A DNA stretch of 63,320 nt, filler included, from Thraustochytrium aureum (GCA_012862495.1; 6 parts of 5 records of this genome joined end to end with filler, not necessarily neighbours in it); one strand, 5' to 3'. Shown: positions 696 through 62,937, counted from the whole stretch's first letter. A program made the numbers and translations. The notes: a model not told the origin generated them from the letters alone.

Positions 696-781
696 GCCTT
701 CCGCTCGCTTACAATGAGATAGTATTGGGCAATTCGTGTCGTCGTGCCTAAAAGGCCATCCCGGGTTACCCGAATCCACTA
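647..781 (+). ncRNA. Candidate Fanzor omegaRNA scaffold overlapping the ORF 3' end
   Basis: Hand-folded: 15-bp hairpin 681-718 with CUUCC loop; stem UGGGCA 726-731 / UGCCUA 745-750; closing helices CCGGG 649-653 / CCCGG 760-764 and AUGGC 668-672 / GCCAU 755-759. Position matches TnpB/Fanzor omegaRNAs. Confidence 0.6.
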
Positions 782-10934: not shown

Positions 10935-11055
10935 CTTGCAAGTTCTCGAAGAGGCGTTGCTCATGTAAGACAGATGTTCCACCAACTCGGCCGAAGCAAG
11001 AAAGTAAGCAAGTTAGAATGTGCGCAGCGTCTACCTCGACGAGCGCGAGGCGCGA

Positions 11056-13605: not shown

Positions 13606-13746
13606 NNNNNNNNNNNNNNNNNNNNNNNNNNNNNNNNNNNNNNNNNNNNGTCCCGACGCGCTGAAGCAAATATGCGGTAAGCTCCAAGAAAATTGGGACA
13701 TAGTCCTTGGACCTTTCGATGATTGCCCCACAGTTGAAATGATAGA

Positions 13747-16700: not shown

Positions 16701-16792
16701 GGAGAGTTCCTGCCGATGTTGGAGTGGACTGCATTCGTCGTCCAGCTCAACAGATCTTTCAGCGTCGTTGATCGTACCTCTCCATTGGCCAT
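13747..16792 (-). CDS. GmrSD-family modification-dependent nuclease: DUF262 (ParB-like) with a large insertion plus C-terminal DUF1524 HNH; about 1000 aa across an N gap
   Basis: DUF262 motifs IHGIQRAYSW, VLDGQGRITT and LFMRHN..SPFDL; HNH VDHIHP..HRIGNLAAVSTAFNN. Both frames are open right up to the gap (..SEPENAQSFRRDLQELR..). Confidence 0.78.
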
Positions 16793-17886
16793 GATTGTGC
16801 GTGAAATGCCAAGCTGGGGCTTAGCAGTGTCGAGATGAGTTTGTGGTTGGACTTGCCGTTTGTGAGGTTGCTCGCGGTGGGTCGGCTCTTCTTCGTTGCT
16901 GGTCGAGTGCCTGTACGCGTGCTTGCCTTCGTTGCTTGCTTCGACTTGCTTGCTTCCTCTCGCTTCGGTCCCTCAATCTATTGGGGGATTGCTTATCCCA
17001 GGGAGACTGCTCGCGATGTCAACAAATGCATCTGCGCAACTTCGGAGAGAATCCAACCGCTCAGTCAAAGTCCCAACTCCGCGCGCCGATGCGAATGGAT
17101 TTGGCATCACAACTTCGGTGCGTTGGATTCCGTTTCCAGCGCGGCAAATAGACTGCACCTTCGCGACGCGGCAGCTGCAGNNNNNNNNNNNNNNNNNNNN
17201 NNNNNNNNNNNNNNNNNNNNNNNNNNNNNNNNNNNNNNNNNNNNNNNNNNNNNNNNNNNNNNNNNNNNNNNNNNNNNNNNNNNNNNNNNNNNNNNNNNNN
17301 NNNNNNNTTTGCTTGGCCAGAGCACTGGCACTGTCCAGATGGTCGGCGCGGGCCAATGTCGGCGCGTCGGTTGCAGCGAATCCCCGACTCGGCGCGGCAC
17401 GCGCCCGAGGAAGCCAAGCAACCGAACTCCGAAGTGTCGCCCGCCGCGGGAAGCCTTGGCCGAACGTGAATCACTGCGGCCAATGAATCAGTCCCGAAGC
17501 ACAAGTGTGGTCACTGCTCATGCGACTCAGAGAAAGAGAGTACCGGTAAGTAACCCCAACGGGCAGGGAGGGGTACAGATTAGGTACTGTCGCTTTTGAG
17601 CCACTCCAGATGTCGGTTGCCTCGGTAAATCCTGGAGACATCTGGTGCGTTGAGCGCATTCGCTGTTGCTCGTCGATTCTCTGTGAGGTAGGTAGGTGAG
17701 TGTCAAAAAAGCGTCTCGAAACGGCTTTGACAATCGCGTCTCGAAACGGCTGGAAGCTCGCCGCGGAGTTTAGACCGGCGGGAAACAACTTGGTGCTATC
17801 GCTACGAAAGCGAGTCGCCCATTCCGCGGCAACGTTTGCAGCGCGGATCAAACCAAGCTTGCGCAGAGATCGAGCCTATACGCGCG

Positions 17887-20800
17887 ATGCAACTTTCCCA
17901 TGCAGTTCTGAAACAGGCCGAAGACTTGCTGGACCATCCTGAGGCGATTGAGAGGCAAGCAGCAGCTTGCTCATCGAGCGGGCGACGTGACAGCACCTTC
18001 GCAAGTATGTCGGCCGGGTTGAGTATTAGCGCGTCACTTCTAGGGCATTATTTTTCCGTCAAATGCGACAAGTACCTGTGGCGAGCTGCTCGGGGCCATC
18101 GCCGCAACGAGTACCAGGAAATTCCAGCGAGGCAGATTGCGCAAACGAAACGCGGCGATGACTTTGAGACCGCCAAGATATCCATGCTTGATGGAGGGGA
18201 TCTCCGCCATATCCCAGGCGACTCGAACGACCTGACCGAGGTTCTCGACGGCGCGGAAGGACCGTTTGTGATGTCGCAAGCAAAGATTGAATTATATCCC
18301 GCAAGCGCCTGGCAACGAAGCGAGCCACCCAAGTGGCTCAGGCGGCTGGAGGAATGCGGGGCGCGAATGAGTATTTGCAAGCCAGACTTTATATTCGTGG
18401 ACAAAGTTGAAGGGGGGGGCTTGGAGATTTTGGTTGTTGACGCCAAGTCAAGCTCTCGCGCTAAGCTTAGTCACCTTGTTCAGGTAGCCATTTACATGGA
18501 GCTGCTTGAAGCGTTCATGGCGATGGTGGGCCTGAACGATCAGCGTTCTGAGGAATTCAAGATTACGGTCTCGATGTGGGGTGGCGTATGGATTCCCAAG
18601 GCAGGAGGCCACCAAGTCAAGCTGAATGGACGCCAATGGTCTATCGACGACGGGCCCGACCTGTTTGACCTAACGCACTTGCGTGAACAACTTCGCATTT
18701 TCCTTGAAGACGAGTTGCCTGCAATCTTAGGGAAAGAGAGTCAGGAGCTGTTAGATTGGAGTATAGAGTCACATTGCGCCACATGCCTGTACAGGGACGA
18801 CTGCTATACAAGGGCGGTATCGGACTCGACCGTGTCCCGACTCGCAGCTGTCCCACGGGTCAAGCCTTCGGACCGGGAATGGCTGCTCAGGCAACTTGAC
18901 GACACTGGCGGAGCAATAGTCGCAGGTGACATTCCTGTCGACAAGCTCCTTAGAGTTGCTGCGCAGGTTGAGGGCGCACCCGTCGACCGTGCCCGATTGC
19001 TCCGTATTCTATCTGCAGAGGGACTCGAGGCGTCAAACGGAGCTGTCCTTAAGGTTTCGGGTCATGATGGTGAACAGGCCTTGGGAATAGCTATCAAGCC
19101 GTCAAGGAGCAGCATAGACTTCCCGCGAATGGAAGATATCGCTGTGGTTCTCAGCTTAGTTGGCGACCCGACTACGCTACCACCACGACTGGCCATGTGG
19201 AACGTGGAGCAGGTGGAATGTAATGTCACCGGGCCAACTTGTGCCGCAACCGCGACGAGCTTCATTGTCTCAAACGACTGCAAGAACTTTGGTGAATGCG
19301 CTCGTGCGCTCGTATGCTGCTTGCATGAGTTGATGTGCGTTCTTGATGAGAAGGTTCCGCGGCGCAAAGTTGCTTTCATGGTCTACAGCGCAAATGAACA
19401 AGCGCTCCTTACAAGTGTGCTGCTTGGTATTGCGCTGGCAGACGAGGACTCTGAGGCAGATGTAGGCCTTGCCAAGGCGGCGATGGCTGTATTAGCCACC
19501 TTGGGAGGCGGTTCTGAGTGCATGGACATGAAGGCGTGCGTCAAAAAGCTCTTTCACGACGACGCAGTCAGACCCAAAACGACAGACTTTCGTCAAGCTG
19601 GTCGAGAAGAATATGAAAGGATTATCCCCGCCGCGTATCGTCGCGCTTTTGAGGCCTCCAGCAAAAGTCACGTATTTGGCAACGGGAAGGTTATGGTAAA
19701 ACCTATGCGATTGGCCTTGTACAAATGGTCGCTTCTCGTATACCTCGAGCGCGAGGTTTCAACGGAGGAGTTTGTAACTGCGTGCCAGCAGTCCAGCGGG
19801 TGCGAATTTGAGGCCCTTGCCCGAGCAAAGGAGAAGAACGATGGTCGTGAACGCAAAGCCAAACTAGAAAACTACTTCCGGCCCCGCTTAGCTGTGGTGG
19901 AGCTCTTCGTTCAGCGCCACTTTGTATTGCGAGCCCCTGGCCCATGCAAGCTCAACGATTTAGCGAGGCTTGCGGACTGTTGCCCCAACACCTCGCTGGA
20001 CGATGATAGCCTTTTCCAGTGTTGGGTCAAACTGGGCCAAGATTCGATTGCTGCGCGACTTCGAGAACGATCGCTGTGTTTGCTCAAAGTGGTCGCTTTC
20101 CTTCGAAATACACTGACGAGTGGGCAAGCGGAGAACATGCCCTTTGAGGCTCGCCCATACCTTGTCTTCGACGCAGCTGAATTTTTTGTGAGCACCACAA
20201 CTTCGCTGCAAAGTCCTCACCTTACGCGTCTTCTCTTTATCGCACAGCACGAGGTGCTCTCTGGAATTAATGCACATCGCACCGAGCGGGCTCATCTTCC
20301 CCTGCAAGACTTGCTACTTATGGGCAAGGGAAAAGCCGCAGCACTCGAAAGAACAAATGCCACGCAAAAGGCTGACAAGGCGATGGCAAACTGCTCTCTG
20401 CTTGAGTTTAGGCTGCTTGACGGGAGTGAAAACGCCCAACTCGAGGTCGAGAACAACGAGTACCTGTTCTCGTACATCCTTGTGCTCGATGATGCCGTTG
20501 GGCGGCACGATGCGCGGACATTTCCAGACTACACGCGAATGGATGACCTGAACCCGGTCTTCTCTGGCCGAGTTGGCGGGCCGGCCCTGGCCAAGGTGAC
20601 CGAAGTTAACGGAGGCAAGGTGACTCTCAGTGTGCTGTCAAGCGATTGCGCTACCTTCCTCAACGCTGGCGTGAGAGCATTGCTGTATCGGCGTTACGTC
20701 AATTTGAGGCTGTTCCAGCGTGAGGTCGACGCGCTTAAACGCCACTCTCGCAACCAACCGACGCTATTTGCTGAGCTCCTTGCCAACCCGGCAGTGGCAA

Positions 20801-23018
20801 GCGTCTGGAAGCCGCTGCGCATGCCCCCTGACGACCTGCGAGGGGCAAATATTCAAGCCAAAATCGAGCGTGCCAAGGCGCGCTGGAATTTGAGCGTCTC
20901 TCAACGCGAAGCTCTGACGATGTGCACAAGCCGTCATCTTGTCAACGTTTGGGGCCCGCCTGGATCTGGCAAGACGTACTTCCTTGGGTGTCTTGTATGT
21001 CTCCTCCTGGAGTGCTTCAAGGATTCGCAATTTCGTGTACTCGTTTGTAGTTCGACAAACTCGGCTGTCGCGACANNNNNNNNNNNNNNNNNNNNNNNNN
21101 NNNNNNNNNNNNNNNNNNNNNNNNNNNNNNNNNNNNNNNNNNNNNNNNNNNNNNNNNNNNNNNNNNNNNNNNNNNNNNNNNNNNNNNNNNNNNNNNNNNN
21201 NNNNNNNNNNNNNNNNNNNNNNAAACAACCGAAGGAGTGGAAGCAGGCGTGTACCGATTCGGATACGCCAAAGTGGACGGCTGTGTGAAGGCCGAGAACT
21301 TTTCCTTCCCCAAAGGCCAACTTTGCTCAGTCATCGGAAGCACCCCTTGGCAGCTTGCAAAGCAAAGGAATCTCACCGCGACGGCAGAAACTATGCATGG
21401 ACCTTTCGACGTCGTCATAATCGATGAGGCTTCTCAAATGCGGATTGGTGCCGCTTCAATTCCGCTTCGGTTTTTGAAGCTCGACGGGCGACTCATCCTA
21501 GCGGGCGACCACCTTCAACTGCCCCCCATTGTCAAGGCCGAATATCCCGCTCCGCCACCTGGACATCTCAATCTCACTGGCTCTATCCTCGACTGCCTCC
21601 TTCGCGAACAGTCTGCAGCTCCTCTGTCCCCATTTACGAAGGGGCATGTAGGACCTGGTGTGAGTCCAGAAGCAAGGAAGTCGCGAGTGGCCAAGCTGTG
21701 CAACAACTTCCGAATGAACAAAGCTCTTGCTGCCTTCACGCAGCTGACTTACGGGACCGACTATGAGGCCATGGGGATCAACGCGTGCCGGCGTCTTCCA
21801 GTAGCAAGTCTGGACGACCCCTCGATGTGCGGCACCGATCTTCTCAACCCGCACAAATCGTTCGTTGCCTTTCAAATGCCGGAGGTCGACGATGGGACGA
21901 CAGTAGAGGAGATGGCCAGCAACGAGGCGGTTGAGGTGTGCCGCATCGTCGAGGATCTTTTCTGCAGGTGGTGCGGCCAAGACCCGGTAACCAATGAGCT
22001 CTTCATCGTGTCACCCCACCATGTCCAGCGAATCGCAATCCGTGCCGCTCTCAGGGCAAGCAAGGTCAAAAAAGTTCGGGATGCAGAGCCTCTTCTGTTC
22101 GTTGACACCGCAGAAAAGGCTCAAGGCAAGACCGCAGACTGTGTTATCCTGTGCTACGGCATCACAACGCGGTCAAGGCTAGAGGAGGACGCCGCTTTCT
22201 TGTTTACTCTTCCAAGGCTCAACGTGGGGCTTTCTCGTGCACGTTGCAAGACGATTCTGATCTATGGCAAGCCCATTGTGAAGGCCAAGCCCCACATCTT
22301 TTCCAATCCAGGAGTGCTGCAAGGATTTCGCCTGTTCAAGCACGCACTCCATTTTGCGGGTTTGAAAGACCCAACGTTTTCCCAGGAGGAAGAAGGCACC
22401 GCGAACGCAAGCCCATTTGAAGCGTCGCTGGAACTCTTACGAAACATGTCGCTCGATTCCACAGCCGGAGGGGCTGGGAAGGTGGATTCTGGAAACGCCC
22501 TTGCGACCAAAACTGAGTCGCCGCCGGTTTCAGGTCAACTGGTGCTTGGAGAGAGCAAAATCTTAAACTCGCAGACAACGCGAGACGGTACGGAGACTCT
22601 GGCAGAATCGGTAGCACACAGAAGTTCTCGAGACAGCGAAGCTACAACGATCCCACAAGTAGAGACGCACTTCAAGAACGAAGGGTCCCATTCTCAGGAC
22701 ACACTGCACGGCACCGGAGACCCGCAATTGGAGTTCGAGAAGAAAAGTGAGACAGTGCAAAAGGCCGCAAGCGACGACTCCACGCTCGCACAAGACAATA
22801 AATCGGCGTGTATCGTTGGCATTCCCAACAGCGATATTGAGCGAACAACTCATCGCCGTGCGCCAGAGATCCCAAGACAGCAAGTGGAATACAGGTCGCA
22901 TGACGTGATCGACCTCACTGAGGAAGATGAATCCACGATTGACCTCAGTGTCACGGAAGCGTCAACATCTGCAAGCTTCAAACGACCTCTTTCTTCAGGC
23001 GAGCACCACACAGCTTAA
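17887..23018 (+). CDS. PD-(D/E)xK Cas4/RecB-like 4Fe-4S nuclease fused to a Dna2/Upf1-type SF1B helicase (AAA_11/AAA_12); N gap; start 17887 or 18007
   Basis: ISASLLGHYFSVKCDKY (Cys1), KPD..VVDAK..HLVQVAIY, CATCLYRDDC; WGPPGSGKT, STNSAV, IIDEASQ, LAGDHLQLPP, NFRM, TAEKAQG, RLNVGLSRAR. Confidence 0.88.
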
Positions 23019-24568
23019 AAACGCACCTTCTGAAAGCAGCCAAGTTCGCGGCGGGCCTTCACGGTGGGCCTGCACTACGGCCAGTCACGCTTCAACTTGG
23101 CTTTCTCAAGGCCTTGACCCGTGCAATCGCGATGTGAGTATGTGGAAATCAAGCCAGGTCGACACGCGATCGTCCCATGAGTCGCGTGTAATGGCCTGCT
23201 TGTCGCGTGGCTCATAGACGTGGGTTTGGCCGCATGGCAAGCGCTTCGTTTTCACAGCAAGCGGCAGGCCCCAGCTGATAAACATGGGCTCTGCACACTG
23301 ACTCACGGACAGACCGCGACATCGACTCGNNNNNNNNNNNNNNNNNNNNNNNNNNNNNNNNNNNNNNNNNNNNNNNNNNNNNNNNNNNNNNNNNNNNNNN
23401 NNNNNNNNNNNNNNNNNNNNNNNNNNNNNNNNNNNNNNNNNNNNNNNNNNNNNNNNNNNNNNNNNNNNNNNNNNNNNNNNNNNNNNNNNNNNNNNNNNNN
23501 NNNNNNNNNNNNNNNNNNNNNNNNNNNNNNNNNNNNNNNNNNNNNNNNNNNNNNNNNNNNNNNNNNNNNNNNNNNNNNNNNNNNNNNNNNNNNNNNNNNN
23601 NNNNNNNNNNNNNNNNNNNNNNNNNNNNNNNNNNNNNNNNNNNNNNNNNNNNNNNNNCTTTTTCTGCAAGGGTACTCTACTAGTACATGTGTCGGCGCCA
23701 CCATTTGCGGGGCTGAGGCAAACAATAAGTGCGATGACGTCTTAGGACTGGACTGCTTCCAAGAACGCACATCATGCGGACCCGGCCGGCACAAATGTGC
23801 AGTGCTGCAACTCTTGGCGTCGCTTTCTATGGCCGCCTTTCAACTTCCGACAGAATGCTTGCGCGCTGCGTGGATTGGTTCACTCTACCTACACACTGGA
23901 GCGCGATGCAAAAGTTGAGTGCGCGACGACTTCACATGCAGCAGGCCACAGCGGAGCCACGGCGTTGCAGGCTCAGAGGTACTTGCGGCCATGCTACTCG
24001 AGATGCTATCGCGGTTGGGGCGCGCCGACGACGATGGATCCCATTCGAGGACATCGGCAGCAGGTCCAAAAAGCCCAGCAAGGATGGGTCAACCGACACT
24101 CCGGTTGACTACCCCCAACGGGCTTGGCGCAGAAAGGCATTGTCCGTACGCCACAGACAGGAGGAATCAGTCGCGGTCCTCCTCGCAGCCAAGTGCAGTC
24201 CGGTAGACGGCACCGAGATAGATCCGTCGCCACAGGGCGACGAGGAGTTGGATCATCCGCTGAGCGCGCAGCCCTGGAATCAGGCTTCCAACCATTTGCT
24301 TCGCCTTCGAGCCGACCTTCGCGCGATGCATCCACGGCACGATTTGAAGTTGCTTTTCCGACACGTGCGGTAGTCTCGGAGCAGCCCGCGAGCACTCGGA
24401 GAGCGGGCGAGATGCCCGTCCGTTACTCGACTAAACACTCGGCCTCCTGCGCTGCGCGGGCGCCCTGCTTGGTCTCCAGGGCGCTCTCGCTCGTACTGCC
24501 GTGCAGCTTGTGTGCGCCGCAGCACGGCGAAAGGGGCCTGTGGTTCTGTTCGGTTCCCAGCCTGCTCC

Positions 24569-25444
24569 TCAGCTGTCGCTACATTTCGCCAGATACTCGC
24601 AGGTTCCAACATGCTCGAGGGTGTGGGGGTGGGGATTGGAGCGGCAGATCGGAGAGAAAGGAAGCCGGACCGGGTTGTGACCGCCTGGGACGCTACCATC
24701 CGAGCTGGCCACAAAGAGCGTAAGGCCCCGCACGTCACCGTTTGCGCTTGATCCGCCAATGGAATATGAATGCATCGCAACGGCGATGTTGGTTTTTGAA
24801 ACTATCGCGACAGCGCTGCCTGTCTCTCTGAGCTTAATGCGAGTTGCAGCCGTCCAGGCTTTGTCCTCCATTTTGTATACCTGAACTTGAGATCCCTTGT
24901 TGAAGAGAAACGCAGCCAGCCCTTTCCCAATTGCAAGACGGCCTGTCGTTGGAAGATGCCCATTATCCCTTTTAGCATTTGGCAGAGTAGCGACGGGATC
25001 CGCGGAGAGTTTCACCTCGACCTTCTCAATCGATGAAGCGACCCACGTGAACTGGAGATCTAGGCTCAGGCATTCGTTCACCTTCTTCTTCTTGCCACGA
25101 CTGACCACCACAACGCCTGTACCACTTGTCGCCGTTCCCTCTCCTTCTTGTTGTTGGAGCTTGACGAAGCGGAAGGATCTTCCATTGTCCAAGTCGACCA
25201 TTTCAGGGTCAGTCTGGGCGCTACAATGCGCGGCGCGCCCGCTGTAGTACACATAACTCCATGAAAGGGTTTTTCCAGATTTGCCTGGAACAAATGCCAG
25301 CGCGACCATGCCGCCATCCTCATGGTAAAATGTGTTGACATTCGTGCCGTCGTAGATACAATTGGAAGCCACAATGGCTGCTGAGACATCGTCGCTTCGG
25401 ACGCCGCCACAAAGCTGGAGTTGATCGAGCGTCTGCGTCAGGTA
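24569..25444 (-). CDS. Hypothetical beta-rich protein fragment, possibly 5' truncated by the scaffold end
   Basis: 267-aa open frame of alternating beta-strand-like segments; no recognisable motif. Confidence 0.35.
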   Translation of the reverse strand, partial: YLTQTLDQLQLCGGVRSDDVSAAIVASNCIYDGTNVNTFYHEDGGMVALAFVPGKSGKTLSWSYVYYSGRAAHCSAQTDPEMVDLDNGRSFRFVKLQQQEGEGTATSGTGVVVVSRGKKKKVNECLSLDLQFTWVASSIEKVEVKLSADPVATLPNAKRDNGHLPTTGRLAIGKGLAAFLFNKGSQVQVYKMEDKAWTAATRIKLRETGSAVAIVSKTNIAVAMHSYSIGGSSANGDVRGLTLFVASSDGSVPGGHNPVRLPFSPICRSNPHPHTLEHVGTCEYLAKCSDS

Positions 25445-49075: not shown

Positions 49076-49487
49076 CGCCTGACGTCGAGAGTTGAGCCCT
49101 GGGCTGCCGATTGGAACTGGCGTAGCTGTTGGAACTTGAAATGGTCGACAAGGTCGTCTGTCAGACCCAAATTGAGAGGAGGCCCCGGGGCGGTGAGGTG
49201 GTGCCATCGGAGGGCAATCATCCGCCAAGCCCAGCATCATCTGCTTATGATGGCTTGGGCTCAGGCGCTGCGGGGCCAAACTGTGCGGNNNNNNNNNNNN
49301 NNNNNNNNNNNNNNNNNNNNNNNNNNNNNNNNTTAATTAATTAANNNNNNNNNNNNNNNNNNNNNNNNNNNNNNNNNNNNNNNNNNNNCGGGCGTTGTCG
49401 CAAACAAGCGCGTGCGGCTTGGTATGATTGATTCCCGCTTCAGCACAAGCAGCAAATCGAATTTGTTATTCTGCGCAAGCTTGCTTG

Positions 49488-50818
49488 TCACGCTCTGGCG
49501 GTCGCACTCCAAGCCTGCTCGGAGGCGCCGTGCGCGAGAGAGTACGCAACTGCCTCAACCTGGGGCTGGCCCGGGCGCAGGCGCCACTCGAGCGAGGGCG
49601 CGTACATGGCCAGCTCGTCCTGCGTATAGGGCGGATAGAGCGGTAGTCCATACTCGCGGAGCGACTTCATCTCGCGGTGCACGGCGCGCACAACGGTGCC
49701 CTGGTCCCTGCCCGACTCCACTTCGCGGTCTGCACAGCACAGCGGCTTGACGTTCCTCTCGCTAAAGCTCTTGATCTTGTCTCTCCAGTTAGCCCAGTGC
49801 AGCAACCCGTACATTGGCGGTGTTTGGCCCGACTTTAGCGGAATCACGCCTTGGCACTCCAAGCGTTCGAGGATGTCTTGCAAAGGCTCTTTTTCAAGGG
49901 TGAGGCGCCATCCCAGGTAGAGCCGCAACATGTCGAAGGACGCCTTGTCCGTGACAGTTTCTTGCAGGATGTGCTCGTGAAACACGAGGATGTGGCCCGG
50001 CGGGACGGTCACCTTTTGGCTTCTCTGGCCGAGCATCTCTTGCTCTGCTGGGTCGCAAACTGGCTCAAACCCGCTGTGCACAGATGGGCCAACCTCTTTG
50101 TGCGAGCCAGGCACGCAAGAGAATACCTGCCCTTCCAGGTCGAGGTTGCACCAGCCGCCATTGATCTTGTCGAGCTTTTTTGCCAAAGGCACTGCGTCGC
50201 GATGCCACGACTCGGGCGAGGGCGAAATCCCTTTGCGGCGAAACATGAGCCTGTCGATGAGCTGCTCGAGCCGCCAGGGCTCCCCTTCGGCGGACGGCGA
50301 AAGCAAGGAGCAGATCTTGCGAAATAGCGGCAGCAGGTGGGCCATTGCGTGCTCGCGGAGCTTCCGAACGGATGGGCAGTGGAACGACGCCGGGTTGCCC
50401 AGGGCCGCGAAACCGCCGAGAACAAAGTCCGTGGCGCCCGGCTTAAACTCTGGAAAGCCTTGGATATCTCTCATGATCTCTGCACGAAACGCTTCCAGCC
50501 GGGGTGGAGTTAGCCACGCCACCGGCACGCACACAAACCCATTCGTCTCAAGGTCAACGACCGCCTGTTCCACGTCAAAGCCTGCGTCCGCTGAAAGCAT
50601 CAACAAGCCCGCGGCGCCGCTATGCGAGCTCTGGCCAGCGACTTCCGCGGGCACTCTTCGCGGCGCACCTTCGTCTCCAACCTGGCTCGGCCGACCTGCT
50701 GGCTTGCACCTCTTTGGCGGCGAGGGCGGCGCATCGTCCGCGTTCACCTCCCGCTTGACGCCTCTGGCCTCTTCGCCAGCCGGGCAGCGCACTCCGCAAC
50801 GCGTGTTCGCCTCCGCCA

Positions 50819-50819
<1 letters not shown>
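49488..50819 (-). CDS. 2-oxoglutarate/Fe(II) dioxygenase (PhyH-like double-stranded beta-helix fold)
   Basis: LETNGFVCVP, LGGFAALGNPASFH, ESWHRD (HxD), GGWCNLD..FSCVPGSH, VPPGHILVF, RLYLGW. Confidence 0.78.
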
Positions 50820-50880
<61 letters not shown>

Positions 50881-51242
50881 NNNNNNNNNNNNNNNNNNNN
50901 NNNNNNNNNNNNNNNNNNNNNNNNNNNNNNNNNNNNNNNNNNNNNNNNNNNNNNNNNNNNNNNNNNNNNNNNNNNNNNNNNNNNNNNNNNNNNNNNNNNN
51001 NNNNNNNNNNNNNNNNNNNNNNNNNNNNNNNNNNNNNNNNNNNNNNNNNNNNNNNNNNNNNNNNNNNNNNNNNNNNNNNNNNNNNNNNNNNNNNNNNNNN
51101 NNNNNNNNNNNNNNNNNNNNNNNNNNNNNNNNNNNNNNNNNNNNNNNNNNNNNNNNNNNNNNNNNNNNNNNNNNNNNNNNNNNNNNNNNNNNNNNNNNNN
51201 NNNNNNNNNNNNNNNNNNNNNNNNNNNNNNNNNNNNNNNNNN

Positions 51243-54200
51243 GAATTGGTAGGTTTTTGGATTTTTTTGTGGTTGTTTTGTCTTTTTGTTTGTTGTCAGG
51301 CCAGGCGCTGCGGCAGGCTGGTCTCGGTGAAGGGTTGCTGGGCTTGGCTGGCTGCCTTTGGCCGCCGACGTTGGCTTTGCGCGCCTCCAGCTTCGCCCCC
51401 CCGCCGATTTGGCAACGCCGCCTCTGGCCAAGTGTGCCACATGGGCGCCTCGCGGCTGCCTTTGGCCGCCGAGGCGGGACCTCCATAATCGCTTGGGGCC
51501 TACTTTTTGCGCTTTTTAGGGCTGGGCGGCTGCGGCGGGCCGCTTCCGCGTTTATCCTTGGGCTTAACGCCTTTGCGCTTGTCTTTCGGCTTTCGCGCGC
51601 GCGCTTGTCAGTGGGCTTTTCCCGCTGAGCGCCGTGCTCTGCGCAAAATCTGCGAAACTTTTCTTCGCGGAGGCGATCACAACCGACTTGCTTGCACGTT
51701 TGGCCCACGTTGCACATCCCGCAGTACTCGAGGCCGCGCCGCGCTTCCTTTGTTGTGCAGCCGAGCTCGTTGGCAGACGGCGTTTTGGCCGGGCAGTTGG
51801 CAATCGTGCATGTTCCCGAGCATTTGCACTTGTGCGCAAGGCACACGCCTTGCGCCCCGTCGATCGGGGGCGCTCCACACAGCCTGTCCTTGGATATAAG
51901 GCCAGAGCAATGCAGAGGAAAGTGCCGCACGCAAAACGACGACTTGTTGCGGCGTGCCTCCGCACATCCTTCGACCGCACAACCCGGTGTTCCGACGCGG
52001 AAAGGCCCTTGAGGGCTCAAAGCCCGGTCGCCCGGAGGGGACGAGGGAGTGGGCTCTGGGCGCTCTAGATCTGCGGACTGTTCGGGGCTACTGCTAGGCT
52101 CTTCAACGGCCATGCGCACGTCTTGTTCGGCGGTGGGTTGGCGCTCAGTGGCGTGGTTGCGCGCCGGGACTTGTTCGGCGTTGGGTTGGCGCTCAGCGTT
52201 TGGGCGCTCAGTGGAGTAGTCGCGCGCCGTGAGCGCCCAAACGCTGAAACGCCCCACGCGCTTGGGCGCCCCCGTCAAATCTTGCCCCGAAAAGACTCTG
52301 ACCACAGAACGGGCGCTCTCCGTGTCGACCGTTTGAGCGACAACTAGGCACTCGACCGCTCGGCCTGCGCCCTTCAAGGCGCCGAGCACCTGATCGGCGA
52401 AAACATTCGCGTAGAAGCTTTGATAGTGCTCCACGCAGATAACCGCCTTGGTGGCGTTGGGCAAGAATTGAAACGCGGCGAGCTCCTTGGCGCCCCAGAG
52501 CGACATTTCGCTGCCGACACTTTGACAGCTGCAGAGGTTGGCTAAGTGGATGACGCTGACCGACTCTGGTTCGCCAAAGCTGTTCGCGCGTAGCCATTCC
52601 TGCAGCAGCGCCTCGGTCTTGGGTTTTGGCGGCTTGAGGTTCTTCTTGTTGTGGTAGAAACGGTTCGCCTTGAGGACGACCAGGCCAGCCTCGTCCACGA
52701 GGTGGTTGAACTCGATGTCTTCCCAGAACGTCTTGACGGGGTAGTAGACGCGCTTGTCGACCGTGGCGCGCACATTGAGGTACAGGAACGAGTAGACCGA
52801 GTAGGACACCATAAAGGGTGACTTTGGGGCCACGCGCGACCCCGAGGGGTCGCGCCGGATACCGATCAGGCCGTACTTGTCGACGCTCCCGCCGATCACG
52901 TCGAGCGGCTCTGTAGCGGCAGAGCCTTCAACTGGCCGCGGCACTTTTGGACCCCGAATCGGGTCCCCTGGCCTCATGCGGCGACAGGTCGGGCGCTCTC
53001 GAGCTGCATTTGTCACCGACGTGGCGCTGGGGTCGCCAAGCTCTCGCTGCTGGACGATGGCCTCGATCGGCCCCATGACGTCGGAGAAGTGGCACGCTTC
53101 AGGCGCGCTCGGCGACGCGCCACAGGCCGCGGCGACCTCGGGACGGCGAAAGCAAGCAAATACGTTGTCGTCCAGGACCCAGACCCAGTGCAAGCCCAGG
53201 GCGCACGCCGCGCGCTGGACAAAGTGCCGTGCGAACCCGATGCCGCCTTTCTGGGCTGTGAGGACGCTGCCAGGCCAGCCAGCCACGCCCTTGGGGCTCG
53301 GGAGGAGTGTCGGGCATGCCGATCACGACGTGCACAGCGCCAAACCGTTCTACGTAGCCGTCAAACTCGGCTCCCTTGCGCACGACAAGCGCAACGACGC
53401 GTTTGTGGCGCTCGTGCTGGGGAATACTCCGCGTGTAGTCGAGCAGCGCGGTGCCGCTGCGGTTGTACGAGGGCACAAAGATCCACTGGACGCGCTTGCC
53501 CGCGTCAGAGAGCTCGACGCGCTTTGCGTGGCGCTTGAACAAGTCCGCTTCGAGCCGGCCTGCTCCGCTGCTGCCGTACAAGCCTCGCACCGGCACGCTC
53601 AGCGCGACCTTGGTAGTTTCGAGGGGCGCGGGCAGGCTGAGCTCATCCCGAAAGCGCCGCCTTCCCTCTGAAAAGTCCAGGAGGAGGGCCTGCGAGGCCG
53701 GCCTCGCAGCGATTTTGCACGCCGCGCTGACGGCCTTGGCGGTATTATTGCCTTCGCTCCGCCTCCGCCGTGCACGTCGGTGGCGTTGGCCTCGCGCACA
53801 GTATCGAACAAGGTCTCCTGAACATGGGCTGCTGCTGCCTCCAAGACCAGCTCTTTCGCCCTGCCCTTCTTGGCGCCGTCCGCAGTTGTCGAGTTGGCCC
53901 TGAGCTTTGCTGCCAGGTCCTTGAGGCTCTCGACGGCGCCGGCAAGCGCGCCGCTCCCCAAGACGAGCTTAAGGCGGCCGTCAAAGTTGATGCACCGCTC
54001 TAGTACTTGTTCCAGTCCATCCACCACGTTGGCCTTGTGGCCCGCGAAAGGCGGCCGCGCAGTTTCGCACTGGTCTTTCAAAGCCTTGACCTTGGCTCGC
54101 CCGACTTCGGAGAGCAGGAACTCGCCCTCAAGGCCGAGCAAGTACTGGTTCGCAAACAGTTGAAGCCACTTGTTGGGGAGCGCGTGGCACGCGGCAAAGA

Positions 54201-57200
54201 GAGCGCGGAGCCGCTGCTGCAAGACCCGCTCGTGGTACTTGCCCTCAACGGGCTTGTCATAAGCAAGCCTCAGCGCCGCCTGCTTGGAGCAGACGAGGTC
54301 CTCCCAGCACGGCAAAACCCACTGCGCCAGGTCGACTCGAGCGAGCGGCGCTGCCAGGGGCGGCAGCTCGGGACGCTTGCTTCCACCGCGTCCTTGAGCA
54401 GGTAGAGAAAGTACAAATAGGTCCCTGTCTTGCCCTGCTGGCACTGCGCTTTGAGCAAAAGCCGGCGCGAGAGGGTCTCGGGCTCTTTGTCGCTCTGGTC
54501 GTAGTGCGGTTTGCGCTTGGCGGTCGTCTTTGCGACCGCCTCGCCATCGATGGACTTGGTCGTCATCCCGATGTCGTAATTTTCGCGATAAGCCGAGAGG
54601 CCGTGAAGGGGATTGTCCACAACGCCGTCCTCCGAGACCTTGACCTTTTTGGACTTCCCGACCCACTTGAGGTAGTCGTCCACCGTCGAGCCGCCGCCCA
54701 GGCAGTCCACGAGGTTGATCCGCCCCTGGGCGTCGAGGTACTTGATCTTGACCGCGTCCATCAGCATGTTGTACGACTCGGGCCGGAGAAGCACGGACGG
54801 GAGGGCGCGCTCGTACTTGGCCACGGTCCATTCCCCGGCTGCAGCGGTTTCATACTCGGCGACGTGTTCGAGCAGCTTGGCACGCAGCTGAGGGAGCGCG
54901 TCGGCGTGGAAAGCAATCTTGTCGTCCGGGGACTTGACCACGACGCTCCGGCCCTTGGAAAAGTGCTCTGCGAGCCTGTGGTCTCTGTCGCTCAGGAACT
55001 GGCCCACATCGTCGGCAAGCGGTCGGCCTTTGGTCCTTTGAAACGACACGGCCCCGTCCTTCGCGAGCCTGGGGTATCGGCACACGCGGCCAAACTCTTG
55101 GCAAAACGTGGAAAACGTGGGCGAGGACCGAAGGCGCAGGTCGAGGAAGCGAAACGAAGCAGGAAACGTGTCCCCCATCCGGCCCTTCTCGCAAAGGATC
55201 ACGATGCAGGGCAAGTTGTGCAGGTCCTCGTATTTTGCGGCCATCTGCGGCCGCCGCGGCTTGCAGATCCCCGGTTCGCCCGTGTTGCCTTGCATCTCGC
55301 CAAAGACGCGCATCTCCTCTTCGTAGGCGCGCATGACGCGATGCTCGACAGTCTCCGCGTCCTCGCCGGGGGAGCCGGGGTCTCGCAAGTCTGCCCGCAG
55401 TGCCCACGGCTCGAGTTGCCTCAAGATGCTGGACGATGCTCGCTCGTTGCCCCCCGTGCCGTCACCGCCATGGTCTCCGATGATGCTGAGCAGGTTGCGC
55501 CATTTTTGGGCTCGCTTTGCCCAGATGCAGATGGGACGAGCCAGCCCAGGCCGAGCTTTTTCTGAGCTTGCCGCAAAGCGTCCTGGACCGACATGTTTTC
55601 GTCCTTCTCGTAAACGCGCGTCACGCACATGTCGCCCGTGCGCCGCTCAGCGTCGACGTCAAAGAGGTGGTGCAGGATCCGGTCCGTTTCGGTAAACCAG
55701 GTGCTCGGCTCGGTCGCGGCCAGAGCGGCGTTGTCTGCGATGCAGCCTTTGAGCTTTTCCTTGATGACGTAGGTCCAAGCCTGCTTTAGCGTTGGAGTGG
55801 AATGGCAAGCGTTGCGACCAGTGCCGGTGCGGTCCGAGTCATTCTCTTCGATTTCGCGAATCGCTTCCTTTTCGATTTCTTCGCACGCGCGGAGGATGAC
55901 GTGCTGAACCGATCCGCGCTCGATGCCCTTCAAGAGCTTGAATGAGCCGACCTGCTTTCGAGGGTCGTCCTTGCACTCGAGCTCGAGGCGCTCCGCGATG
56001 CCGAGCGCCTGCGCAAACGCCTCGAGCCACTGCTTGGTTCCTGCGTACGCTTCGAGGTCGCTGTCTGAGAGGCCAGAGTGGAGGTCGTTTCGGAGGACCT
56101 CTTTGCCGAGCTTGTTGAGATTGTCCTTGTCGACGCGGTAGAACGCCAGGAACGCCATCGAGATGAGGTACTCGACGAGGAGAAAGTGCCCGTTGAACAG
56201 CGGCGTGGACTCGGAGTACTTGGAGACGCGACATGCTTCGCTTCTCCGTTTGGGCGCTTTGCGCTTGCCAAACTTTGATTCATACTCGCCAAGGAGCGTC
56301 GCGAAAGGCACGTCGACGCGGACGNNNNNNNNNNNNNNNNNNNNNNNNNNNNNNNNNNNNNNNNNNNNNNNNNNNNNNNNNNNNNNNNNNNNNNNNNNNN
56401 NNNNNNNNNNNNNNNNNNNNNNNNNNNNNNNNNNNNNNNNNNNNNNNNNNNNNNNNNNNNNNNNNNNNNNNNNNNNNNNNNNNNNNNNNNNNNNNNNNNN
56501 NNNNNNNNNNNNNNNNNNNNNNNNNNNNNNNNNNNNNNNNNNNNNNNNNNNNNNNNNNNNNNNNNNNNNNNNNNNNNNNNNNNNNNNNNNNNNNNNNNNN
56601 NNNNNNNNNNNNNNNNNNNNNNNNNNNNNNNNNNNNNNNNNNNNNNNNNNNNNNNNNNNNNNNNNNNNNNNNNNNNNNNNNNNNNNNNNNNNNNNNNNNN
56701 NNNNNNNNNNNNNNNNNNNNNNNNNNNNNNNNNNNNNNNNNNNNNNNNNNNNNNNNNNNNNNNNNNNNNNNNNNNNNNNNNNNNNNNNNNNNNNNNNNNN
56801 NNNNNNNNNNNNNNNNNNNNNNNNNNNNNNNNNNNNNNNNNNNNNNNNNNNNNNNNNNNNNNNGCCGCGGACGCCAATGGACCTCTCGACGCCCTTGTCG
56901 TCGTAAAACCTAAAGTCGCCCACACCCGAGGGCACGCCCCAGGTCGCAGTCTCCACATAGTACTCCATGGAGCGGTACAGCGTGGCCTTGGTGTCCCACA
57001 CGACCACGTTGTCCATCGGAACGCGCGATCGCCTCGAAAGGCAGTTTTGCGGCGTCGCGCTACCAGCATGCTCAACACATTGGGCCTGCGAATCAGTTCG
57101 ACGTCGTTCAGCAACTTGTCGTGCGCGCCGTCCTTGGTCGGCGCGTGGTGACACTCGTCGGCGATGACAACGACCAAGGTCCGCGCTCGCTGGGCCTCCG

Positions 57201-58680
57201 AGCGGACCGTCGCCATCACACCTTGCGTTGCATCGTCGTAGTGAAACTTTAAGACAACGCCGCCGTTGAGCTGGGCGCCGCGGACCCGGTCGGCTGTCTG
57301 CGACTGCAAGCTGTTAAAGTTGGGCGTCAGGATGACGAAAGACACGCGGTCAAACTTGCCGCGCAGCTTTTGCGCCGTGTCCCAGACGAGGTCGCTCTTC
57401 GCGCGTTCGGCAAGACTGCCGCTCTCGCCGAGCGCTTCGGCGCCGAGGAGCGCCCGCGCGGCCTTGAGAAACAATTCCTGGGCGATTCCCTGCTGCTCTG
57501 GGTGGGCAAAGTCCACGCGAGGCGGCGCCTGGAGCTCGGTGCTGGGCGCCGCGCCTAGCGGCGCCGCTGCGGGAATGAGTGTCTTCATCTCCAGTTTTAC
57601 GTGGCGGCGCACGACCACGCCACCCTCGGCGGCCGTGTCTTGTTCGTCCAGCGGAGTAATCTTTGCAATCTCCACCGTCTCGTAGTTGAACTCTTTTATC
57701 TTTTGCTCGAGGGCGTTCTTGAGCCACTCGTACTGCTCCCTTTCCACGCTTTTCTTCCGCACTTGGCCTTGCTCTGCCAAAATCTTTCCCCAATCGTTGT
57801 GCGCTTGAATGAAATTCACCGGGATCTCGTCTTGAATGAAATCCTCCGCGTTCTCGCCTTCGGCGCCCTCCTTGTCTCTGCTGGGCAGGAAAACGGAAAA
57901 GACAACGGTGATTGGCCGGAACTCGGGCTCGAGGTCTTCCTCCTCAGGGTCGTCGTCCGCCGCTCGCTCCTCTTTTGTCGTGGCGATGGCCTCCCAGACA
58001 GCGGCGCGGTCCGCTCTACTGGGAACAACGAGCAGGGCCCGTGTGTGGCCCTCGCCGCGAGAGATGGCGACAAACATGGTCCCCTTCTCGAGGGCGCTGG
58101 AGAGGTTGGCAGCACCTGTAGCAACGGCATCTGGGTTGTCCTCATCGTCCTCCTGGTCGCTCATATGCGTCGCTCGAGCGTTGTTCCACCCGAACTTTCT
58201 GTCCAGGTTGGCGATCTGCTCGAAGTGGTTGTCCGCGGAAATCGCCTGCTCGAGCGGCCCCCGCCCTCTGTTTTGCAGCACCAGCTCAAACTCGCTCGCG
58301 GCCTCGCGACCCGGCTCTTTGGCGGCCCCTGGCGCTCGGACAAACACCCTGACGTCGTCGCTGCCCCTGGGCAGCGCGGCCGTCGCCAGCGCGAGCGCAG
58401 CGCCGTCAAGCCGCACGAACGACTTGTGCCCAACCAGCGGCTTTGTCTCCCGCAGCCGGGTCACGTCCGCGCCAGTAATCTGCTGGCCGCCGACCGAGCA
58501 CTGCTCGAGCACGTCGCCGAGCAGCGCGACCGAGTCGGGCTCGACGCGTCCCTCGGCGAACGGAAACAGATCGAACAGCTTCCTGCGCGCCTCCTCGAGC
58601 TGCAGATCCGCGCCGACGGCCTTGCCCGTCGTCATAACCAGCACCACCGGGCGGCCGCCGCTGCCTGCGCCCGCCTCCAT
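51243..58680 (-). CDS. GREB1-like multidomain protein: possible GHKL-like N-terminus, circularly permuted SF2 helicase, TET/JBP-associated glycosyltransferase (TAGT) and CxxxxC..CxxH Zn fingers; about 5 frameshifts and a gap; no stop before the 3' gap
   Basis: Motif order: IADECHH, SATP, LPCIVILCEKGRMGDTFP..DLR..QEFGRVCRY, then Walker A LLLKAQCQQGKTGTYL. TAGT: IFVPSYNR, VVR..EF..Y, GIGFAR, WVLDDN, LYLN, EDIEF. Confidence 0.8.
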
Positions 58681-60364
58681 CGCGCTCGCTCCAACGCCAG
58701 CTCTTCCCTTGGCTGCCCCTCCGAGTCCTTCGCTGCTCGCCTCGGCCGCTGCAGTCTCGTTCGCTCTCGCGTTCGGTGTCTGCAGCACAGGCAGATCATT
58801 CAGATTCAGAAAACCCACCTTCAGATCCACAACTGCCAAATCAATCTTGACCTCAAAGTGACGAGTACTCCACAGCCGCAATAGCGCTGCGTTGAGGAGT
58901 GAGTATACTGCACTGCAGAGTCCTCACAAGCCGCGACAGCTCGAACCTCCTCGATGACAGCGGAGATTGAATCCGCACGAAGAAGCACGGCATGGACAGC
59001 CAGCCAGCAGAGAGGAGAGTACTCGAGTACTCCACGGACAACAGGAGGACAACGCTCGTGCCGCTCTGTGCTGGGAGAGCGCAACCCTTGGCTTTCGTTT
59101 CGAGACGGGAGAACAGTGGAAGGGTTCCTTTGCCGCAGGCGGCGTGAGAGGCGGGGTGCACACCCGTTCTCTTGAGCGATTTCAGGGGAACACAATGAGA
59201 AACGCCGCTGACTGAGAGAAGGAGGGGACACAGCGGCAATCACTCAGCCTCTGGTGCATCAGCGGCGCGAACAGGACACCAGCACCACGAGCAGGACGAC
59301 GAAGAGGTTGGTCGGGTTGGATGCACGCCAAGCGCGCCGCCCTGGATGGCGCCGCTGTGGCAGACCGAGGGTGGCGAGTGCCCGCGAAAGTGGGGGTCGT
59401 CAGCCAACACGGCCAGGGCCTGGTCGCTGGGCACCGCCTCGAGCTGCGGGACGCGCTTCGCTCAACCAGTGTACCTGGCCTGCGCCTCCTCGAAGCCGGA
59501 AGCTCCAGCTTTTCGCAAGGCCAGCAGCCGCACTCCGTCAGCATCTCGTCCACTGCCTCCGACCCCTTCACGAACAAGGGCGCGGATCTTTGAAATCGGC
59601 CCCACTTGGCCGACCTTCGAAATTGAGCAGGAGATGGATTCTAATTGAAACTCCATCTAATCGTAACAGTTCCACCCAGGAACACCTCAATCCGGTCGAC
59701 TATCGCCGACGGCAGTCCGCTTCTCTGACCGAAAATATGCATCATACGACGTCTCTGTCGAACCTGGTGCTCTATCACCCCGGCCAGCAGGCCAGCTCCT
59801 GTATTGCCGATGCTGTTGTTCGAAAGACTGTTGTAGTTGTTATTGTTGTCGTTCGATGATGGCGATTGTGGGGCGAGNNNNNNNNNNNNNNNNNNNNNNN
59901 NNNNNNNNNNNNNNNNNNNNNTTAATTAATTAANNNNNNNNNNNNNNNNNNNNNNNNNNNNNNNNNNNNNNNNNNNNGTCCGCTGTTTCGTTTTCGAGCC
60001 AACCTAACCCAGCGGATTTGACCCGCTGTTTAATAGGAGCGCAAGGTGAGCGTCCGCTGTTTCGCGCTGAAGCCGGAGAGCAGGCTGCCCCGCAGTCTCG
60101 CGAGAGGGCCGGCTGCCCCGCTCGGGGAATCCCGCCGGCATCCGCGGCCAGGACACCGCGCAGGCCACTTGAATCGCACGCTCGAGATAGAGACCGGACG
60201 CAGCGCGGGCCGGGATGCGACTGGAATCGGTCGAGCGTTTTTTGTCGCTTCGAGCCACGTGCTTGCTCATTGCGTGTGCTTGTGGTGCTGTGGTGACGCG
60301 AAGCGGCCCAGCCGGGCTGACCCCTGCCAGACCCCGAACTGGTGCGCGCGAGACCTGCATCGGG

Positions 60365-60396: not shown

Positions 60397-60450
60397 TGAT
60401 ACTGGCAAAGGCGCGCTTGGACTCGCTTCGACAGGCGGAGGGCAGCCAGG

Positions 60451-62937
60451 ATGGGGTTTCTGGAGGTCGGAAGCCCCATGGACTGGCAGGATACCGACGA
60501 GTATCACCGCGTGCTCGAGTACGTGCTCGAGCACGGGGTCAACCAGTTCCTGCAGGTCTACGCCAAGGTGAAGGACAGGAAGAACGACGTGCTGCTGTGG
60601 GGCGACGAACTGGAGTTTCACGTGTTTCGCACCATGGAGGACGGCTCCGTAAAACTGAGCCTAAACGCGCACGAGCTGCTGGCCAAGCTGCAGGCCGAGG
60701 ACGACGAGATGGCCCGAAAGGGCGAGGAGGTTAAGGCCACGTGGCACCCAGAGTACGGCGCGTGGATGATCGAGGCTACGCCGTACGGCCCCTACGGCGG
60801 GTTCTCGCACGACCTGCGCAACGTCGAGCCCAGCCTGCGATACCGGCGCCGGCGCATCGTGGACGCCTTGGGCCCGAACGAGGGCCTGAGCTCGCTGGTG
60901 GCCTGGCCGCTGATGGGCGTCGGGGATTTTTGCGTTCCCGCCGGCCTCAAGACCCACGGACACGCCGCGGACTCGCTGTTCTTGCCAGACGAGGTGATCA
61001 ACCCGCACCCGCGCTTCGCAACGCTGACGCGCAATATCCGGCGCCGGCGCGGCAAGAAGGTTGACATCCGGCTCCCGCTGTTCAAGGACAAAAAACACCG
61101 GGGGCGGAGGGCTCGGCCAGCGCGGCGCAGTTCACGGTCAAGTCGGCCGACAACTGCGGCCAGGAAGAGGTGGGCGAGATCTACATGGACGCCATGGGGT
61201 TCGGCATGGGCTGCTGCTGCCTGCAGGTGACCTTCCAGGCCCGAGACCTGGACGAGTCGCGAACGCTGTACGACCAGCTGGCCATGCTCTGCCCCATCTT
61301 CATGGCCCTGACCGCTGGCGCCCCGGTTTTCAAGGGCCTGCTCGCCGACACGGACGTGCGCTGGGCAGTGATTGCGCNNNNNNNNNNNNNNNNNNNNNNN
61401 NNNNNNNNNNNNNNNNNNNNNNNNNNNNNNNNNNNNNNNNNNNNNNNNNNNNNNNNNNNNNNNNNNNNNNNNNNNNNNNNNNNNNNNNNNNNNNNNNNNN
61501 NNNNNNNNNNNNNNNNNNNNNNNNNNNNNNNNNNNNNNNNNNNNNNNNNNNNNNNNNNNNNNNNNNNNNNNNNNNNNNNNNNNNNNNNNNNNNNNNNNNN
61601 NNNNNNNNNNNNNNNNNNNNNNNNNNNNNNNNNNNNNNNNNNNNNNGGGGTTGCGGACAAACCCATCACGATGCCCGGCGCCTCTGCGCCGCAGCGCGGG
61701 AGCCACCCCATCTCCAAGAGCAGGTACGACTCGATCGACAGTTTCATTAGCACCTCGGCCAAGCTGCGCCCCGAGTACAACGACGGTGCCATGGAGCTCA
61801 ACGAGGAGGCTTTGCGCCGCCTCTTGGAGGCTGGAATCGACGAGCGGCTCGCGCGACACATCGCCCACTTGTTCGTGCGCGATCCGCTGGTGATCTTCAG
61901 CGAGCGCGTCAACCAAGTTGATGACACCGAGTCCACCGAGCACTTTGAAAACATCCAGTCAACCAACTGGCAGACGATGCGCTGGAAGCCTCCCGGGCTG
62001 GACGTCAAGACTGGCTGGCGCGTCGAGTTTCGCTCAATGGAGAAGCAGCTCACAGACTTTGAGGACGCCGCTTTCATCACCATCGTGGTGCTCCTCACGC
62101 GCGTCATCCTCTTCTTCGACCTCAACCTCTATGTGCCCATCTCCAAGGTTGACGAGAACATGCGCCGCGCGCATTCCCGCAACGCGGTGCTCAAGCAGAC
62201 GTTTTTCTTCCGCAAGGCGCTCTTCGTGCTCCAGGCGCAGTGCGAGCCTGGCGAGGCTGCAGCAGCGGCTGCTGCTGCGGCGGCGGCGGCGGCGGCGGCT
62301 GCTGAAGTGCAAGCTGGCGACGCGGCCCAGCCGGGGCCGGTGGGAGGACGAGTACGAAGAGATGACGATTGCTGACATTCTCACCGGGCGCGGCGACGAC
62401 TTTCCCGGCCTCTTCCCGCTGATACACGCCTACTTGGACATTGTGCAGGCCGACAACGAGACCGTCGACACGGTCAACGAGTACATGGACTTTATTGTGG
62501 CGCGCGCCACCGGCGAGCTCCCCACGCCCGCGACCTGGATGCGCCAGTACATCGCCCAGCACCCGGACTACAAGCACGACTCGGTAGTCTCGACCAAGAT
62601 AGCCTCGGACCTCGTTCGCCACTGCGAGAAGATCTCGAATGGCGAGGTGCACGAGCCAGCCTTGCTGGGCGAGAACCGGGTCGCGCCGCTCCGCGACGAC
62701 TCTGGGCCTGGGCGCCACAAGGTGGCGCAGCCAATCGCCAAGAAGCGCTTGCGCGGCGCCTCGTTCCACGAGGAGATCGAGACAGACAGCCGCTTTCTGT
62801 ACCGGTGCAGCCTCGTGCGCTCGCTGGTGGCCAAGTACAAGAACATGCCGTCCAGCAAGCACAATCTCGTCAACAAGGGCTTTGAGAGCACGCCGGCCTA
62901 CCTCGAGCTCTCGGCCGCCAAGGTCGCCCTGAACTAG
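60451..62937 (+). CDS. GSH1: Glutamate--cysteine ligase catalytic subunit (eukaryotic type); gap and frameshifts near 61095 and 62290
   Basis: [89 protein letters not shown]. Confidence 0.97.

Follow-up and report, generated by a model that had tools for sequence, protein, structure and literature searches.

Do two neighbouring genes of the thraustochytrid Thraustochytrium aureum, one coding for a GREB1-like protein with motor and glycosyltransferase modules and the other for a 2-oxoglutarate (2OG)- and Fe(II)-dependent dioxygenase, make up a pathway in which a base is first hydroxylated and then glycosylated? This was proposed in an initial annotation of a 63,320-nucleotide stretch of DNA (the window), which consists of scaffolds strung together via TTAATTAATTAA linkers, with N gaps within the scaffolds. 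The two genes are carried by scaffold E (49389-59877), itself bounded by such linkers and, as had been annotated, both are real and lie co-oriented on the minus strand. In our reading, to which we assign a probability of roughly 0.7, the GREB1-like motor-glycosyltransferase, likely active, and the PhyH-fold dioxygenase, unrelated and ligand-substituted, are neighbours by chance. Namely, relatives of the two genes are almost never paired, and the oxygenase is without its predicted iron-binding His. The features on which the argument leans are given below; the names of motifs III, V and VI of the superfamily 2 (SF2) module are those that we presume to apply.

51244..58680, minus strand: gene 1, GREB1-like, about 2450 codons; circularly permuted SF2 ATPase, TAGT GT-A domain and Cys/His-rich tail (from Pfam and collinearity with Hondaea)
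57145..57162, minus strand: Walker B (ADECHH), N-terminal to Walker A owing to the permutation
57044..57061, minus strand: SF2 motif III (SATPQN), immediately following frame break 1 (about 57062)
56325..56863, no strand: gap of 539 N inside gene 1, profile order preserved across it
55077..55190, minus strand: SF2 motifs V (EKGRMGD) and VI (QEFGRVCR, arginine finger)
53304..55503, minus strand: frame breaks 2-5 of gene 1 (55502/3, 54369, 53761, 53304), absent from related runs
54423..54440, minus strand: Walker A (QQGKTG), with which the permuted SF2 module ends C-terminally
52708..53473, minus strand: TAGT motifs PSYNR (53473-53459), DDN (53172-53164; DDNV to 53161) and EDIEF (52722-52708)
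51634..51981, minus strand: two CxxxGC-x10/11-CxxH repeats in the tail of gene 1, no Pfam match at E 0.01
50821..51242, no strand: between the genes, a 60-nucleotide CAG repeat (50821-50880) and a gap of 362 N (50881-51242)
49488..50819, minus strand: gene 2, PhyH-fold 2OG-Fe(II) dioxygenase of 443 residues, from a large, mostly giant-virus family
50196..50207, minus strand: HxD motif W205-H206-R207-D208 (WHRD)
49962..49964, minus strand: Gln286 (CAA), in the column of the predicted third iron ligand

Is the pairing conserved? We fetched 156 loci bearing members of the dioxygenase family, namely all 76 viral candidates and the best 80 of 410 confirmed metagenomic ones, which form 87 groups at 85% identity, 50 of them with 2 kb of sequence on both sides and 32 with 5 kb (the family sequences are loci L001-L156 and proteins P0001-P0084 and P0107-P0244). 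Using a TAGT profile, an iterated profile and a motif scan that recovered 9 of 12 positive controls, we found a TAGT near the dioxygenase in a single one of the 87 groups (L138). GREB1-like sequence was not found across the 156 loci, tblastn with 18 GREB1-like homologues returning none, and tblastn with segments of the window gave one weak, short match, to motif III in L118 (E 7.6e-4), which is unsupported by Pfam and looks like chance. A motif-scan match in L005 likewise looks like chance, the scan having yielded three matches on reversed against five on forward sequences. Antisense shadow open reading frames (ORFs) excepted, no neighbour family among the 69 largest clusters recurred within 1.5 kb in more than three groups. 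When 20 virus records, drawn from 50 viral loci and including 10 near-complete ones, were searched, a TAGT was present in one of the 20 dioxygenase-bearing records (one of the 10 near-complete), and that same record has a TET, as do three of the 20 in all. Nor are the two domains found fused: the TAGT profile reached a best E of 0.96 against 239 dioxygenase-family proteins, the dioxygenase profile 0.46 against 36 GREB1-like proteins, and no TAGT was detected in 61 long members of the dioxygenase family. Finally, Hondaea carries its dioxygenase (GBG30819) on a 475-kb contig and the two GREB1-like genes found, GBG34092 and GBG35110, on contigs of 108 kb and 9.4 kb, respectively. In other words, neither the surveyed loci nor the known Hondaea copies show a conserved adjacency. 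Other searches came back blank in a way that shows little: GREB1-type SF2 patterns confirmed no locus (0 of 41 stretches in viral_contigs, 0 of 40 in GTDB), a TAGT DNA pattern had no viral match, the L138 TAGT as query found nothing in 3 stretches or, here with no positive control, in 20 records, and PF20692 matched none of 20 records, with no control detected either. The giant-virus bin G011 (L157, L158) has a canonical TAGT on contig C8, a TET on contig C1 and a PhyH-fold dioxygenase, and G013 and G016 have TETs and no detected TAGT.

The dioxygenase itself also speaks for chance neighbourhood. Its 443-residue ORF has no Pfam match of its own, Tet_JBP included, and its relatives comprise 84 proteins of similar length at 28-49% identity, the profile search extending to 1151 clusters at E<=1e-30. 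Among 69 aligned members of the family, 36 match PhyH (PF05721) at E<=0.1 and none matches Tet_JBP. The first Atlas match, at 0.96, is a viral cluster in which 18% of the members carry PhyH, and the closest viral match is Marseillevirus LCMAC101 A0A481YSB5 (E 2e-34, 32% identity). The structural model of the protein (predicted local distance difference test, pLDDT, 93.9) displays a double-stranded beta-helix (DSBH) fold closest to the PhyH clan. In particular, the best fold matches are YbiU (Z 16.4, root mean square deviation 3.7, 263 residues aligned), GIG2 (Z 15.8) and proline hydroxylase H11 (Z 14.5), i.e. PhyH/Gig2-like proteins and small-molecule hydroxylases, with the prolyl hydroxylases PHD2/PhyA at Z of about 12 and AlkB-type rows lower, at 9.7 and 9.0. 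TET/JBP structures are absent among the fold matches listed, which does not exclude such a likeness; an hhalign comparison of the dioxygenase profile with one viral TET gave a probability of 0.08%, a PDB sequence search with the profile gave nothing below E 1, and PHROGs, PADLOC and NCBIfam added nothing on this enzyme. The view that the dioxygenase is PhyH-like and not of the TET/JBP type is therefore well founded, given that Tet_JBP matches are lacking and PhyH-like folds lead. With PhyH-like dioxygenases such as YbiU and GIG2, gene 2 shares the DSBH fold, the HxD motif and a conserved Arg on the last core strand, but it belongs to an unnamed subfamily with its own conserved motifs and a C-terminal extension.

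What is more, the window copy departs from its family at one telling position. H206 and D208 of the HxD...H iron triad are present, but the distal His is replaced by Gln286. In the corresponding column, predicted from its conservation and strand position to provide the third iron ligand, 309 of 311 family domains have His, and R299 on the last core strand, in a column that is Arg in 309 of 311, would bind 2OG. Since contigs from the related sequence runs X1, X2 and X3, which differ from the window at 3, 1 and 8 positions, all elsewhere, carry the same codon, the change from His to Gln is not an assembly error. A paralogue of about 82% identity is also present in X1 and X3 (window 49605-50279), its alignment ending at the third base of the Gln286 codon. 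Phylogenetically, the window dioxygenase falls in a six-domain clade (SH-aLRT 97 in a quick tree of 33 rows; FastTree 0.99 with 311 rows) with both Hondaea domains, P0122 and two unnamed proteins. The cluster of P0122 includes the transcript MMETSP0961, which we take to come from Aurantiochytrium limacinum; the accompanying taxon id is that of a fungus. Because of this grouping, thraustochytrids have likely carried gene 2, which is of giant-virus affinity and duplicated in the lineage, for a long time. A predicted metal ligand is lost in three of the six domains, i.e. in the window copy and in the first Hondaea domain and P0011, both without HxD, which suggests repeated drift towards pseudo-enzymes in this thraustochytrid-containing clade; the window copy itself is likely weakened or changed in activity. 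The positions of these losses are in P0107, in P0011 and at window 49962-49964. That the degenerate first Hondaea domain shares the His-to-Gln change was considered and rejected, as five residues are deleted from it at this place and the second, His-bearing domain of the same protein is its partner in the tree. An endogenous-virus origin of scaffold E is likewise not favoured, with a host-like GC of 0.59-0.65; its GC at third codon positions (GC3) of 0.75-0.82 (tail 0.66) is slightly under that of housekeeping genes, 0.81-0.90.

Several points weigh against chance neighbourhood, L138 among them. On this contig of giant-virus type (2-4750), a 799-residue TAGT, a gene with a RAMA domain and an intact member of the dioxygenase family lie in this order within 1.3 kb, the dioxygenase on the opposite strand and RNA polymerase subunit 2 adjoining. 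The TAGT scores 0.96 in the Atlas and has a profile E of 3.8e-05 against 0.24 for the best of the reversed sequences; the RAMA match (E 1.7e-07) is below its cut-off. That said, the L138 dioxygenase and the window copy are not closely related, the tree distance being 2.06 as compared with 1.15 for Hondaea. Pfam TAGT misses L138, and therefore divergent TAGTs can escape detection. Furthermore, flanks of 2 kb in both directions are available for just 50 of the 87 groups, the surveyed neighbourhoods are viral and metagenomic with no eukaryotic one read directly, Hondaea GREB1-like proteins of more than 2000 residues would have escaped the homologue search, and Hondaea does have both gene families. 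As for the dioxygenase, it departs from the family at 2 of 54 conserved columns, which is the family median, and is thus not generally decayed. A His-to-Gln change at the equivalent ligand of TauD is reported to have left activity largely intact, a precedent that our literature search did not turn up, and Gln286 may weaken rather than abolish activity.

What, then, would the first gene do? It runs from an ATG that we presume to be its start at 58680 (the frame is open from 58923) to about 51250 in six reading-frame pieces, one of them interrupted by a gap. Pfam cpSF2-GREB1 (PF20692) matches four consecutive pieces in profile order (E 6.5e-19, 0.0068, 6.4e-06 and 1.6e-40 for profile positions 29-147, 151-184, 214-329 and 335-493), Pfam TAGT (PF20691) matches the last two (E 0.006 for the first and 2e-06 for the second, whose 28.3 bits exceed the cut-off of 27.5), and one of the six is without a Pfam match. 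The SF2 module is circularly permuted, Walker B (DECH, 57162) preceding Walker A (GKT, 54440), and is followed by a C-terminal TAGT GT-A domain whose R...DD...ED motifs align with those of homologues. On these points the initial annotation was accurate: the GREB1-like assignment is supported by Pfam and the motif alignment, the motifs PSYNR, DDN, EDIEF and WHRD are all located where it had put them, and its length of about 2400 codons agrees with a read-through of 2296 residues plus the 539-N gap (about 180 codons). The split of the gene into six pieces was a point that it had not mentioned. We compared the breaks with four runs from two studies (X1-X4) over 51243-56324: those at 53761 and 54369 are absent from X1-X4, the one at 55502/3 is absent from X1 (+1) and X2-X4 (-2), and the one at 53304 is absent from X2-X4, the position lying outside X1 coverage. 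Since they are absent from the related runs, breaks 2-5 are assembly errors, and the ORF is continuous over both modules, which Hondaea P0085 carries in collinear order. Break 1 lies outside the compared stretch and falls within a motif that Hondaea P0086 has in one piece. Frame changes also occur within glutamate-cysteine ligase (60400-62937), AAR2 and a major facilitator superfamily transporter (9613-10965, 11059-12776), so that the draft evidently has many scattered one-base errors. The 3' end of gene 1 is uncertain, as the frame runs open into the gap and X2-X4 diverge from the window below 51547; one low-depth X1 contig, with 2 bases fewer at 51358, places a stop TGA at 51298-51296. The repeats in the tail are possible zinc fingers.

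The closest relatives of gene 1 are the GREB1-like proteins of Hondaea, and its segments are 29-62% identical to P0085/P0086, in the same order. Gene 2 likewise has its closest relatives in Hondaea, which points to a thraustochytrid as the likely host. With GREB1/GREB1L (PF20692 and PF20691), whose nearest named members are Hondaea fermentalgiana GBG35110.1 and GBG34092.1, already annotated as 'GREB1-like protein', it shares the domain order, the permuted Walker A and the TAGT motifs R...DD...ED. A search with one piece of gene 1 returned 18 proteins of 659-2000 residues (two GREB1-like proteins from Hondaea, others from Ectocarpus, Trebouxia, Physarum and metagenomes, and four vertebrate GREB1L rows), and the motif alignment, with P0106 added, has 19 rows. 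All 19 have Walker A (QxGKT). The window protein, like most non-vertebrate rows covering them, retains Walker B (DE-C/A-H; DDCH in P0086), SAT and GRxxR, whereas the four vertebrate rows are altered at Walker B (HDNSH/HDNAH), motif III (SSF) and motif VI (QEVGLACC). The helicase module of GREB1 is called catalytically inactive in the accessible portions of PMC7968844 and PMC6163654; in the window protein, Walker A, Walker B and motifs III, V and VI are all intact. Gene 1 further differs from vertebrate GREB1 in its additional Cys/His-rich tail, and the vertebrate N-terminal GREB1 domains were not seen in its Pfam scan. A model of the homologue P0096, built with 18 sequences and of low overall confidence (pLDDT 58), matches GT-A enzymes (RmlT, TarP, TarS) and the SF2 DNA translocase HsdR (E of about 1e-4), which fits an ATP-driven nucleic-acid enzyme and falls short of showing one. 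Gene 1 is, judging by its motifs, likely an ATP-driven GREB1-like glycosyltransferase. In the proposed mechanism, it would engage nucleic acid via the intact permuted SF2 ATPase, the motor presumably being active, and add a sugar via the TAGT domain. A hydroxyl on nucleic acid would be the acceptor by a slight preference over a protein, as in human GREB1, and that hydroxyl would be supplied by something other than gene 2, e.g. a TET/JBP enzyme elsewhere in the genome. Non-vertebrate GREB1-like proteins keep ATPase motifs lost from vertebrate GREB1 and, for this reason, a culturable thraustochytrid is well suited to asking what the ancestral GREB1 motor-glycosyltransferase acts on.

Is the adjacency itself real? 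The dioxygenase had been described as lying directly downstream, and it is indeed the next gene on the same strand, but a 362-N gap with a CAG repeat intervenes. One could argue that the scaffolder joined two contigs at this microsatellite and that the genes are not truly adjacent. The junction is edged by the longest CAG run in the window, and no contig from X1-X5 bridges 50881-51242; however, each comparison covered one side only, and as the compared stretches excluded the gap, little weight attaches to the missing bridge. Moreover, all three gaps tested by gene continuity, inside glutamate-cysteine ligase (61378-61646), inside a superfamily 1 (SF1) helicase (21076-21222) and inside gene 1 (beyond whose lower edge X2/X4 contigs extend by 1069 and 1958 letters), are correctly joined. 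Consequently, the adjacency is probably real and a false join unlikely. At the other extreme, the two ORFs could form one fused gene running through the gap, given that gene 1 reaches it without a stop and that the dioxygenase frame, too, has none from 51515 through the Ns. We find this hardly credible: no such fusion occurs among the 239 and 36 relatives, the gap is preceded by A-rich sequence of non-coding appearance, the low-depth X1 contig would end gene 1 ahead of the gap, and X2-X4 part from the window below 51547.

If the genes are separate neighbours, do they act together? In the pathway as proposed, the PhyH-like enzyme would hydroxylate a DNA or RNA base and the GREB1-like motor-transferase would glycosylate it, giving a base-J-like mark without TET/JBP. 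Such a pathway is in keeping with the co-orientation of the genes, the intact TAGT and ATPase motifs, the HsdR-like fold of the homologue model, the independent cluster in L138 and the AlkB-type domain that is fused to one dioxygenase-family member (L098) and adjoins another (L079). Against this stand the 1 in 87 groups, the single TAGT-bearing virus record with its own TET, the separate Hondaea contigs, the PhyH/Gig2-like and small-molecule hydroxylase folds, the Gln in place of the distal His and the remoteness of the L138 dioxygenase. We therefore regard the pathway as improbable, and no less so its extended version, in which PhyH-fold dioxygenases derived from giant viruses would prime bases for TAGTs, the thraustochytrid GREB1-like protein would write the mark and L138 would be the viral counterpart. 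Of three outcomes that had been named beforehand as speaking against the proposal, two are largely what we observe, namely the lack of conserved adjacency and a dioxygenase matching small-molecule hydroxylases. Alternatively, the pair could act on protein, the dioxygenase hydroxylating a residue that the GREB1-like enzyme then glycosylates. Lysyl hydroxylase LH3 hydroxylates and glycosylates collagen in this manner, and LH3 is among the GT-A matches of the P0096 model. Dioxygenase-family members are, in addition, fused to protein-acting domains such as an Ulp1 peptidase (L077) and a haspin kinase (P0123), and human GREB1 O-GlcNAcylates the protein ER-alpha, according to the accessible part of PMC7968844. 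Yet the absent linkage and the Gln count here just as much, the SF2 motor is left without a clear role, and the prolyl hydroxylases PHD2/PhyA score below PhyH-like proteins (Z of about 12 vs 16), which makes joint action on protein, if anything, the less believable of the two. Chance neighbourhood of a likely active GREB1-like enzyme and a ligand-substituted dioxygenase is what we prefer to both.

How does the locus compare with known systems? In common with base J (JBP1/2 and JGT) and the 5mYOX (TET) and GT-A systems of phages and giant viruses, it has a TAGT-family GT-A domain beside a 2OG-Fe(II) dioxygenase. It differs in that its dioxygenase has a PhyH fold and does not detectably resemble TET/JBP in sequence, the oxygenase-TAGT linkage is not conserved, the glycosyltransferase is fused to an SF2 motor and carries DDN instead of DDD, and scaffold E has no methyltransferase neighbour. 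Clusters of TET and GT-A with an R...DDD...ED motif are described in the accessible text of bioRxiv 10.1101/2023.12.21.572611, bioRxiv 10.64898/2026.10.09.758095 deals, as far as its available part goes, with a viral TET, and N6-methyladenine in A. limacinum by nanopore is given in PMC12695648, which lists nanopore data for this species under BioStudies S-BSST1363. In the literature covered, mostly outside subscription journals, we found neither a PhyH-TAGT pairing nor thraustochytrid base glycosylation, and the accessible portions of PMC12344493 and PMC7824862 hold nothing on either. Were the pairing true, a second oxygenase family would enter DNA hypermodification and base-J-like chemistry would extend to stramenopiles; as found, the locus adds one more GREB1-like gene from a protist, with an uncharacterised dioxygenase as its neighbour.

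A few observations concern the wider dioxygenase family and the rest of the window. Giant viruses have very many members of the family, for which no substrate is known; PhyH is listed among the oxygenases of nucleocytoplasmic large DNA viruses in PMC10598087, with no substrate given in its accessible part. Fusion partners in the family are mixed, including an Ulp1 peptidase (in L077, with two dioxygenase domains), haspin kinase, zf-MYND (L005), HNH (below cut-off) and the AlkB-type domain of L098, as well as a macrodomain in P0033 that is named by its source only. Elsewhere, the scaffold at 13650-25444, which has no link to the gene pair, is of lower GC (about 0.55; GC3 about 0.6) and was possibly acquired horizontally. 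Within it lie a weak GmrSD_N/SspE-like gene (15017-16972; E 0.002, below cut-off) and, at 17731-23015, a large SF1 helicase resembling those of defence systems.

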